This document shows, in pieces, positions 20,914 through 59,400 of a stretch of DNA of 64,000 bases. Under the pieces are notes generated by a model. That model was not told the origin of the DNA, did not search any database, and was given only the letters and a program-made list of their open reading frames with translations. Position 1 is the first letter of the stretch. Every line of letters starts with the position of its first letter. The DNA lies in NCBI RefSeq assembly GCF_003334335.1, contig NZ_QOWQ01000011.1; one strand, written 5' to 3'. The position numbers were made by a program, and so were the translations under genes. Source of the DNA: Escherichia coli. Lineage in GTDB: Bacteria; Pseudomonadota; Gammaproteobacteria; Enterobacterales; Enterobacteriaceae.

Positions 20914-20932
20914 TAGATAAGTTTTAGATAAC

Positions 20933-21011
20933 AAAAAACCCATCAACCTTGAACCGAAATGGCGGGGTTGATGGGCTCCACAAAATGGGGACATCAAAGA
21001 AAAGCAGTGGC
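20933..21011 (-). ncRNA. rybB: RybB small RNA (sigma-E dependent, represses outer membrane protein mRNAs)
   Basis: The minus strand of 20933..21011 reads GCCACTGCTTTTCTTTGATGTCCCCATTTTGTGGAGCCCATCAACCCCGCCATTTCGGTTCAAGGTTGATGGGTTTTTT, which I recognise as RybB; ends in a GC hairpin plus U-run. Confidence 0.9.
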
Positions 21012-56217: not shown

Positions 56218-58494
56218 ATGCTCAATCAAGAACTGGAACTCAGTTTAAATATGGCTTTCGCCAGAGCGCGCGAGCACCGTCATGAGTTTATGACCGTCGA
56301 GCACTTGTTACTGGCGCTGCTCAGTAACCCATCTGCCCGGGAGGCGCTGGAAGCGTGTTCTGTGGATTTGGTTGCGCTCCGTCAGGAACTGGAAGCCTTT
56401 ATTGAACAAACCACACCCGTTCTGCCTGCCAGTGAAGAGGAGCGCGACACACAGCCGACGCTGAGTTTTCAGCGTGTACTGCAACGTGCGGTCTTCCATG
56501 TCCAGTCCTCCGGTCGCAATGAGGTTACCGGTGCAAACGTTCTGGTCGCTATCTTTAGCGAACAGGAGTCGCAGGCGGCATATCTGTTGCGTAAACATGA
56601 AGTCAGCCGTCTCGATGTGGTGAACTTTATCTCTCATGGCACGCGTAAAGACGAGCCGACACAGTCTTCTGATCCTGGCAGCCAGCCAAACAGCGAAGAA
56701 CAAGCTGGTGGGGAGGAACGTATGGAGAATTTCACGACGAACCTGAATCAGCTTGCGCGCGTGGGCGGAATCGACCCACTGATTGGTCGTGAGAAGGAGC
56801 TGGAGCGTGCTATTCAGGTTCTCTGCCGTCGCCGTAAAAACAACCCGCTGCTGGTGGGGGAATCTGGTGTCGGTAAAACCGCGATTGCGGAAGGTCTTGC
56901 CTGGCGAATTGTTCAGGGCGATGTGCCGGAAGTGATGGCTGACTGTACGATTTACTCTCTCGATATCGGTTCTCTGTTAGCGGGCACAAAATATCGCGGC
57001 GACTTTGAAAAACGTTTTAAAGCGTTGCTCAAGCAGCTGGAGCAGGACACTAACAGCATCCTGTTTATTGATGAGATCCACACCATTATCGGTGCGGGTG
57101 CAGCGTCTGGTGGTCAGGTCGATGCGGCTAACCTAATCAAACCGTTGCTCTCCAGCGGTAAAATTCGTGTAATTGGTTCGACAACCTATCAGGAGTTCAG
57201 CAACATTTTCGAGAAAGACCGTGCTCTGGCGCGTCGCTTCCAGAAAATTGATATTACTGAACCGTCGATCGAAGAAACTGTTCAAATCATCAATGGCCTG
57301 AAACCGAAGTATGAAGCGCACCACGACGTGCGTTATACCGCAAAAGCGGTGCGTGCGGCGGTAGAGCTGGCGGTGAAATACATTAACGATCGTCATCTGC
57401 CGGATAAAGCCATTGATGTTATCGACGAAGCGGGCGCTCGCGCACGCCTGATGCCGGTAAGCAAACGCAAGAAAACCGTTAATGTGGCGGATATTGAGTC
57501 CGTGGTGGCCCGTATTGCACGCATTCCAGAGAAGAGTGTTTCTCAGAGTGATCGTGATACCCTGAAAAACCTCGGCGATCGCTTGAAAATGCTGGTCTTC
57601 GGTCAGGATAAAGCCATTGAGGCGCTGACTGAAGCCATTAAGATGGCGCGTGCAGGTTTAGGTCACGAACATAAACCGGTTGGTTCGTTCCTGTTTGCCG
57701 GCCCTACCGGGGTCGGGAAAACAGAGGTGACGGTACAGCTTTCGAAAGCTTTGGGCATTGAGCTTCTGCGCTTTGATATGTCCGAGTATATGGAACGCCA
57801 TACCGTCAGCCGTCTTATTGGTGCGCCTCCGGGATACGTTGGTTTTGATCAGGGCGGTTTGCTGACTGATGCGGTCATCAAGCATCCACATGCGGTGCTG
57901 CTGCTGGACGAAATCGAGAAAGCGCACCCGGACGTGTTCAATATTCTGTTGCAGGTGATGGATAACGGTACGCTGACCGATAACAACGGACGCAAAGCAG
58001 ACTTCCGTAACGTGGTGCTGGTGATGACCACCAACGCCGGGGTACGGGAAACTGAGCGCAAATCCATTGGTCTTATCCACCAGGATAACAGCACCGATGC
58101 GATGGAAGAGATCAAGAAGATCTTTACACCGGAATTCCGTAACCGTCTCGACAACATTATCTGGTTTGATCATCTGTCAACCGACGTGATCCATCAGGTG
58201 GTGGATAAATTCATCGTCGAGTTGCAGGTTCAGCTGGATCAGAAAGGTGTTTCTCTGGAAGTGAGCCAGGAAGCGCGTAACTGGCTGGCCGAGAAAGGTT
58301 ACGACCGGGCAATGGGCGCTCGTCCGATGGCGCGTGTCATCCAGGACAACCTGAAAAAACCGCTCGCCAACGAACTGCTGTTTGGTTCGCTGGTGGACGG
58401 CGGTCAGGTCACCGTCGCGCTGGATAAAGAGAAAAATGAGCTGACTTACGGATTCCAGAGTGCACAAAAGCACAAGGCGGAAGCAGCGCATTAA
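56218..58494 (+). CDS. clpA: ATP-dependent Clp protease ATPase / chaperone ClpA
   Basis: 758-aa product from ATG 56218 ([24 protein letters not shown]...); two AAA+ modules ([16 protein letters not shown]). Confidence 0.95.
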
Positions 58495-58518
58495 TCTGAT
58501 TGTTAGGTAGGTTGGTCA

Positions 58519-58555
58519 AGTCCGTAATCTCGAAAGAGGTTACGGACTTTTTGTT
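58519..58555 (+). terminator. Rho-independent terminator of clpA
   Basis: Stem agtccgtaa / ttacggact followed by tttttgttt. Confidence 0.65.
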
Positions 58556-58706
58556 TATGGGGTGGAGGAGGTTCAGACCCTTTTTTTAATGATGATGGTA
58601 AGTTGTTGATAATTAGTGCTGCGGGAAGGTAAGGATAAAAAAGGGTGCTGCAGGAGAATGGGATGGTTTTGCTTTATTAACAACGGGCTAAACGTGTAGT
58701 ATTTGA

Positions 58707-58794
58707 GTTCACTGCCGTACAGGCAGCTTAGAAATTCACAGGTAACATACTCCACCCGCCCACCATGTTCACTGCCGTACAGACAGATAAAATG
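58707..58794 (+). CRISPR. Minimal orphan CRISPR array (type I-F repeat family): two repeats, one 32-bp spacer
   Basis: Repeat 1 gttcactgccgtacaggcagcttagaaa (58707..58734) with the internal palindrome ctgcc-gtaca-ggcag; spacer ttcacaggtaacatactccacccgcccaccat (58735..58766); repeat 2 gttcactgccgtacagacagataaaatg (58767..58794), identical for 16 nt then degenerate. No cas genes in the window. Confidence 0.75.
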
Positions 58795-58795
58795 C

Positions 58796-58830
58796 GAAAA
58801 AAAAGCTCGCACTTTCGTACGAGCTCTTCT
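58796..58830 (-). terminator. Putative terminator downstream of serW
   Basis: Imperfect hairpin agctcgcac / gtacgagct followed on the minus strand by a U-run (plus aaaaaaaa at 58796..58803). Confidence 0.5.
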
Positions 58831-58836
58831 TTAAAT

Positions 58837-58924
58837 ATGGCGGTGAGGGGGGGATTCGAACCCCCGATACGTTGCCGTATACACACTTTCCAGGCGTGCT
58901 CCTTCAGCCACTCGGACACCTCAC
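58837..58924 (-). tRNA. serW: tRNA-Ser (anticodon GGA)
   Basis: The minus strand reads GGTGAGGTGTCCGAGTGGCTGAAGGAGCACGCCTGGAAAGTGTGTATACGGCAACGTATCGGGGGTTCGAATCCCCCCCTCACCGCCA: 88 nt with long variable arm, GGA anticodon in the CTGGAAA loop, TPsiC-loop GGTTCGAATCC and 3' CCA. Confidence 0.9.
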
Positions 58925-59110
58925 CAAATTGTTTTGCTACCAAACCTCATGGGTGGCAACGGGGCGCTACTATAGGGAGTTGGAGTAAAACGGTCAAGAA
59001 GAATTTTAATGATAATTATTGTTTGCTCATACTGTAAACAAGTTGTGCAGTATATCTACATCGAGACAAGTTACGGACTTATACTTCCAAAGTACTTCAT
59101 ACATATCACA

Positions 59111-59140
59111 AAATAAAAAGGCCGGTTAAACCGACCTTTT
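59111..59140 (-). terminator. Rho-independent terminator of infA
   Basis: Minus strand aaaggtcggtttaaccggccttt hairpin (one G.U) followed by ttatttt. Confidence 0.55.
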
Positions 59141-59178
59141 ACTCGTTCTTTCTCTTCGCCCATCAGGCGGTAAAACAA

Positions 59179-59400
<222 letters not shown>

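Follow-up and report, generated by a model that had tools for sequence, protein, structure and literature searches.

An orphan type I-F mini-CRISPR array of Escherichia coli K-12 between clpA and serW, with a spacer derived from cas1f

A short CRISPR array without cas genes raises the question of whether it is the passive scar of a lost system or an element with a role of its own. We addressed this question for the interval between clpA and serW in a 64,000-nt stretch of E. coli DNA (contig NZ_QOWQ01000011.1 of assembly GCF_003334335.1; hereafter "the window"). The array is, in all likelihood, the known cas-less (orphan) type I-F mini-CRISPR of E. coli K-12, carrying a cas1f-derived spacer and to be read as an anti-cas element. 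Such elements, including the one in the K-12 genome itself, have been described since 2010.

The array comprises, in order, a leader, one canonical repeat, one spacer and a degenerate terminal repeat. Repeat 1 (GTTCACTGCCGTACAGGCAGCTTAGAAA; 58707-58734, + strand) is a canonical I-F repeat of the CRISPR-4 type, 28 nt long, with a 5-bp stem and a 5-nt loop. It matches the Rfam model CRISPR-DR4 over its full length (50.1 bits for a gathering score of 35, E = 1e-10), with a single departure from the consensus, i.e., a GTACA loop vs GcACA in the model. Its predicted fold, .....(((((.....)))))........ at -8.6 kcal/mol, is a Cas6f-type hairpin. No further copy with ≤3 mismatches was found elsewhere in the window, and shuffled sequences gave an expectation of 0. 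Repeat 2 (GTTCACTGCCGTACAGACAGATAAAATG; 58767-58794, + strand) matches repeat 1 at 22 of 28 positions, including all of the initial 16 nt; its 20 bits against CRISPR-DR4 fall under the gathering score, as is usual for a terminal repeat. The two repeats start exactly 60 nt apart, corresponding to the I-F unit of 28 + 32 nt, and enclose a 32-nt spacer (TTCACAGGTAACATACTCCACCCGCCCACCAT; 58735-58766, + strand). The orientation of the array is clear: the repeat has its canonical I-F sense on the + strand, the AT-rich leader precedes it, and the degenerate copy closes the distal end.

On the left, the locus is flanked by clpA (56218-58494, + strand), located from the open reading frame list and the RefSeq annotation of the identical stretch in E. 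coli DH1, and its outer boundary on the right is infA (59179-59397, - strand). Repeat 1 starts 212 nt past the clpA stop at 58494, and this interval (58495-58706) has a G+C content of 41% vs 51% for the whole window. It includes a hairpin resembling an intrinsic terminator of clpA (58518-58549, + strand; 14 pairs followed by a T run), which is conserved in all aligned strains, and then the AT-rich leader (58550-58706, + strand), a presumed promoter region that can be aligned to the leader preceding the clpA-proximal I-F array in cas-positive strains. A simple scan of the leader + strand yielded no consensus sigma-70 promoter. Downstream, the array is directly abutted by the serW terminator hairpin (58797-58832, - strand) and then by serW itself, a tRNA-Ser(GGA) gene (58838-58925, - strand) identified by ARAGORN, by Rfam (tRNA, 53.8 bits) and in RefSeq. 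Overall, the intergenic DNA between clpA and infA shows 100% identity to that of E. coli K-12 DH1, and the exact spacer is also found in K-12 MG1655 genomes.

Most of this layout had been anticipated. The original prediction, made from the letters alone, proposed a 28-nt I-F-type repeat in two copies 32 nt apart, about 210 bp after the clpA stop and preceded by an AT-rich leader-like stretch, the second copy matching for 16 nt and then diverging as a degenerate terminal repeat. Its coordinates and counts were correct, the leader-like stretch proved colinear with the leaders of genuine I-F arrays, and the degenerate copy exists in two forms that are both conserved among orphan arrays.

We then asked whether any part of a I-F system accompanies the array. 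Searches of the 64-kb window with all six I-F Cas proteins (tblastn) returned no significant match, and the sole non-random one, over Cas1f residues 33-43, was to the spacer itself. Since the window holds no I-F cas gene, the array is an orphan, in agreement with the original prediction; the RefSeq annotation of K-12 likewise has no cas genes between clpA and infA. The clpA-infA interval had been named as the site of the I-F locus in strains that carry one, and this was borne out by the I-F-positive strains DLL557 (L001) and 503440 (L003), both of which hold the full operon there, in the order clpA, leader, array, cas1f, cas3f, csy1, csy2, csy3, cas6f, serW, leader, second array and infA. Besides the site, these strains share the repeat and the leader with the window: all 14 repeats found in L001 are identical to repeat 1, and the 212-nt interval upstream of repeat 1 is colinear with its counterpart in both strains and, in the alignment, identical to that of 503440. 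Homology resumes at the serW terminator, so that the cas operon is missing exactly between the array and the terminator. Also absent from the window is the second I-F array, present in the serW-infA gap of cas-positive strains.

Complete I-F loci of E. coli (LF82, UTI89, ATCC 11775, DLL557 and 503440) and those of Yersinia and Pseudomonas thus resemble the window array in the 28-nt repeat, the Cas6f hairpin, the 32-nt spacer, the leader, the chromosomal site and the CC protospacer-adjacent motif (PAM), while the window lacks their cas operon and their second array between serW and infA. They also differ in the number of spacers per array (7 to 36, vs one in the window) and in what the spacers target, i.e., plasmids for the complete loci and the system's own adaptation gene for the window array. 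The cas-positive loci have their own irregularities: csy2 of DLL557 (L001 11430-12353) is a pseudogene with an internal stop, and in 503440 the second array is separated from serW by an IS100 insertion (istA/istB; L003 20784-22585). Compared to L001 14129-14971, the K-12 serW-infA gap (58926-59178) contains about 115 nt of unrelated sequence (roughly 58985-59100), and the same gap in cas-positive strains is occupied by the second leader and array, about 700 nt in all. The word GTTACGGACTT, one half of the hairpin of the clpA terminator, is also present at 59070-59080, a weak and non-colinear similarity. A leader duplicated between the clpA-array gap and the serW-infA gap was considered on account of short direct repeats and rejected, as BLAST gives only words of 9-11 nt that are non-colinear and weak or due to chance.

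The spacer itself is a copy of a PAM-flanked segment of the I-F gene cas1f, as judged from sequence identity and motif. It corresponds to the antisense strand of cas1f at about codons 33-43, and it matches this strand in L001 (5680-5711) with 2 mismatches where none of this quality would be expected by chance (0 expected). Across I-F loci the match is 30/32 in L001 and L004, 29/32 in L003, and 31/32 in 'E. coli' E69 (L014). In L001, L003, L004 and L014, i.e., every I-F locus examined, the dinucleotide CC lies directly 5' of the protospacer, and the I-F PAM of E. coli is GG on the target strand, or CC on the spacer strand (Almendros 2012, PMC3506596). Mobile elements offered no credible alternative: the only match among plasmids in PLSDB was a 25-nt stretch at 88% identity, which lies within a further cas1f gene, carried by a Vitreoscilla plasmid; among phages in INPHARED only a 17-nt chance match was obtained (E = 3). 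The earlier view of the spacer as the record of a past target therefore holds in that a target exists, but this target is neither a phage nor a plasmid. With cas1f as the target, what had been described as a passive scar becomes a published anti-cas element; the original prediction recognized a genuine orphan array and placed it correctly, but missed both the cas1f target and the literature available since 2010.

Next, we evaluated whether cas targeting extends to orphan arrays generally. Eight other orphan arrays hold six distinct spacers, all of which map to cas1f, cas3f or csy3 of the L001 and L003 references with 0-6 mismatches. For each of the six, the PAM is CC in one or both of these reference loci, the CFT073-type cas3f spacer being preceded by TC in L001. 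From strain to strain the spacer slot is variable and the repeats are constant. All sampled orphan arrays have in common the terminal-repeat tail ATAAAATG, which is unlike the terminal repeats of either array in cas-positive strains. The same csy3 and cas3f spacers are found with both forms of the terminal repeat (L007 vs L012 for one, L008 vs L009 for the other), which suggests recombination or recurrent mutation. Some orphan strains additionally have one or two copies of an 'RtT sRNA' element between the array and serW (L005 632-767; L007 632-768 and 811-947; L012 631-765), of which the K-12 window has zero.

Among 5,426 complete E. coli genomes, the array was matched in some form in 5,196 and cas1f in 241, the latter as two allele groups (≥99% and about 96% identical). 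The cas1f-derived terminal spacer occurs in about 2,320 genomes, as three linked haplotypes represented by window positions 58735-58794, L005 501-588 and L006 380-584. For the first, the exact K-12 spacer was found in 1,433 of the 5,426 genomes, and the spacer together with its terminal repeat (A at spacer position 6, G17A in the repeat) in 1,430. A two-mismatch haplotype with T at position 6 and an intact GGCAG hairpin, which includes the listed O157/O55 strains, accounts for 563 genomes, and a four-mismatch class, which fits the 28-nt spacer with a 4-nt deletion seen in L006, for 328; the 563 and 328 genomes were grouped by identity band (95-99% and 90-95%, respectively), with sequences checked in L005 and L006 only.

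These observations fit an established picture. Touchon & Rocha (2010, PMC2886076) found that in cas-less E. coli the short I-F array, their CRISPR3, has no spacers other than ones that match Cas1, Cas3 and Csy2 of the array's subtype, and proposed an 'anti-CRISPR' role for it; in the naming of the Mojica group the locus is CRISPR-III and the array CRISPR4.1-2 (PMC3903273). Native orphan arrays are reported, in the work of Almendros et al. (2016, Nat Microbiol 1:16081) as summarized in two reviews (PMC8616872, PMC5972030), to be constitutively expressed, to interfere with plasmids bearing the full I-F cas set, and to trigger primed spacer acquisition. All features of the window array match the orphan CRISPR4 anti-cas arrays of these studies (Díez-Villaseñor 2010; Touchon & Rocha 2010; Almendros et al. 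2016), namely the clpA-serW-infA locus, the repeat, the leader, the terminal-repeat tail, the lack of I-F cas genes and a cas1f spacer with an I-F PAM, and K-12, identical to the window here, was among the genomes they analyzed. There is thus no difference in kind from the published element, only in details of the allele: a seed mismatch at spacer position 4 and a change at position 6 linked to G17A. Mini-CRISPR arrays of phages and plasmids, associated with competition between elements, are alike in having one spacer between one full and one degenerate repeat and in depending on Cas proteins supplied in trans. The window array differs from them in being chromosomal and vertically inherited, and in targeting the very cas operon that would supply the proteins.

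By analogy with the published arrays, the K-12 array would be transcribed from its leader, and the transcript would lie idle as long as I-F Cas proteins are absent. Should a mobile element import a I-F cas operon, the incoming Cas6f would cut the resident transcript, and a Csy complex loaded with the resulting anti-cas1f crRNA would recognize the incoming cas1f gene. Cas2-3 would then degrade the DNA bearing cas1f, aided by primed acquisition of further spacers, and the I-F system would fail to establish. A cas-less array that is retained and vaccinates against the CRISPR-Cas type to which it belongs is a curiosity of textbook level, not a discovery, and orphan anti-cas arrays would help explain why I-F cas genes occur in only about 4% of complete E. 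coli genomes.

How well the K-12 allele in particular would perform can be considered from its mismatches to cas1f. Relative to representatives of both RefSeq E. coli cas1f allele groups, the K-12 spacer is mismatched at positions 4 and 6, plus position 10 in one group. The mismatch at position 4 is common to the K-12 and O157-type spacers and corresponds to a synonymous serine codon (AGT/AGC) in cas1f. When one genome per species was scanned, the AGT allele was recovered in 'E. coli' E69 (CP089930.1), whose protospacer (L014 924-955) is identical to the O157-type spacer at 32/32 positions, is preceded by a CC PAM, and differs from the K-12 spacer at position 6 only. E69 carries its I-F system at the same locus with 37 repeats (L014 1227-3410); over its clpA end and leader, identity to K-12 is only 88%, indicating a divergent Escherichia lineage, and its cas1f allele was found in none of the 241 RefSeq I-F-positive E. 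coli genomes. In type I surveillance complexes, every sixth spacer base, position 6 included, is flipped out and goes unread, and the seed consists of positions 1-5 and 7-8. Following this base-reading pattern, the K-12 crRNA would fully recognize the E69-type allele and would have a seed mismatch, at position 4, to both sampled RefSeq cas1f groups. In type I systems, a seed mismatch usually favors priming over direct interference.

The position 6 change specific to the K-12 lineage is linked to G17A in the terminal repeat, which breaks one stem pair (GACAG vs GGCAG), and the predicted fold of the terminal repeat is accordingly -1.4 kcal/mol in K-12 vs -8.6 kcal/mol for the GGCAG form of other orphan arrays. 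In the sole crRNA, this hairpin would form the 3' end, the part bound by Cas6f. On such sequence comparison and fold prediction, a barrier that is leaky or specialized in the K-12 haplotype is conceivable, but we consider it improbable, and the K-12 allele would by inference still be competent. Were the barrier leaky or specialized, protection in about a quarter of E. coli would depend on priming instead of direct interference, or would be gone entirely, and the three spacer haplotypes would provide a ready-made series in which to gauge the level of anti-cas activity kept up by selection.

The least probable rival to the anti-cas reading is that the element is not a CRISPR at all, i.e., that the direct repeat arose by chance, or belongs to a small open reading frame or to some longer non-coding structured element. 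There are only two repeat copies, and mechanically called open reading frames overlap the array (58573-58812 on the - strand and 58703-58834 on the + strand), but neither frame is annotated in RefSeq K-12, which has no coding sequence here. The full-length CRISPR-DR4 match, the identity of repeat 1 to the repeats of cas-linked arrays at the same locus, and the variation of the spacer between constant repeats together exclude such an origin, to which we attach a negligible probability. A more serious rival is that the array is an inert relic, the non-functional scar of an ancient I-F system that in the K-12 lineage is decaying and poses no barrier to re-acquisition. It would account for the mismatch in the seed to either of the cas1f groups sampled among the 241 RefSeq genomes positive for I-F, the hairpin weakened by G17A and the lack of a consensus promoter in the simple leader scan, and the 4-nt-deletion variant of the same spacer in about 328 genomes indicates that this spacer can decay. 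Against this, seed mismatches in type I systems typically still permit priming, some form of the array persists in 5,196 of 5,426 genomes, and all orphan spacers sampled are directed at cas genes with the correct PAM, which is not expected from random retention. The K-12-specific substitution also falls on an unread base, a weak point given a chance of 5/32 per substitution. Finally, native orphan arrays are expressed, interfere and prime, according to the reviews of the published experiments (PMC8616872, PMC5972030). We regard an inert relic as unlikely.

A different question is how the orphan state arose, i.e., whether it is the scar of a loss or predates cas acquisition, which is disputed between Touchon & Rocha 2010 (PMC2886076) and the Mojica group (PMC5972030, PMC8616872). 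One explanation, the Díez-Villaseñor 2010 hypothesis as relayed in later papers (PMC2886076, PMC8616872), is that a complete I-F system acquired the cas1f spacer and that the ensuing self-targeting selected for deletion of the cas operon, leaving the array as a trace. Besides being stated in the literature, this idea is consistent with a spacer that has the correct PAM and the 32-nt length of genuine I-F adaptation, with a leader that is the same as in cas-positive strains, and with the precise absence of the cas operon between the array and the serW terminator. It is less parsimonious according to Touchon & Rocha 2010 (PMC2886076), since cas-less arrays extend across most lineages and cas-positive ones are clustered. 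The one tail common to all orphan arrays, and distinct from that of cas-positive arrays, speaks for one ancient event and against losses that recurred. Overall, we view this history as possible but somewhat doubtful; it is compatible with a later anti-cas role.

Outside the array, Rfam matches to sX4, MicC, Thr_leader, sraA and sroD over the region were discarded, as all score far under their gathering thresholds; the only alignments shown, those of sX4 and Plastid-psbl-rps4, rest largely on the tRNA. At the gathering threshold, the whole-window Rfam search recovered the RybB sRNA (20930-21008, - strand), naRNA4 (CssrE; 33706-33786, + strand) and ES036 (CssrF; 32684-32726, + strand), which are ordinary features of this E. 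coli chromosomal region. A metagenome-assembled contig labeled 'Proteobacteria bacterium' (L013; JADFJT010000085.1) is identical to K-12 through the clpA end, the leader, the array and most of serW, and diverges at about position 1338, within the 5' part of the tRNA. This break may mark the integration of an island at serW, or the assembly may be chimeric or contaminated.
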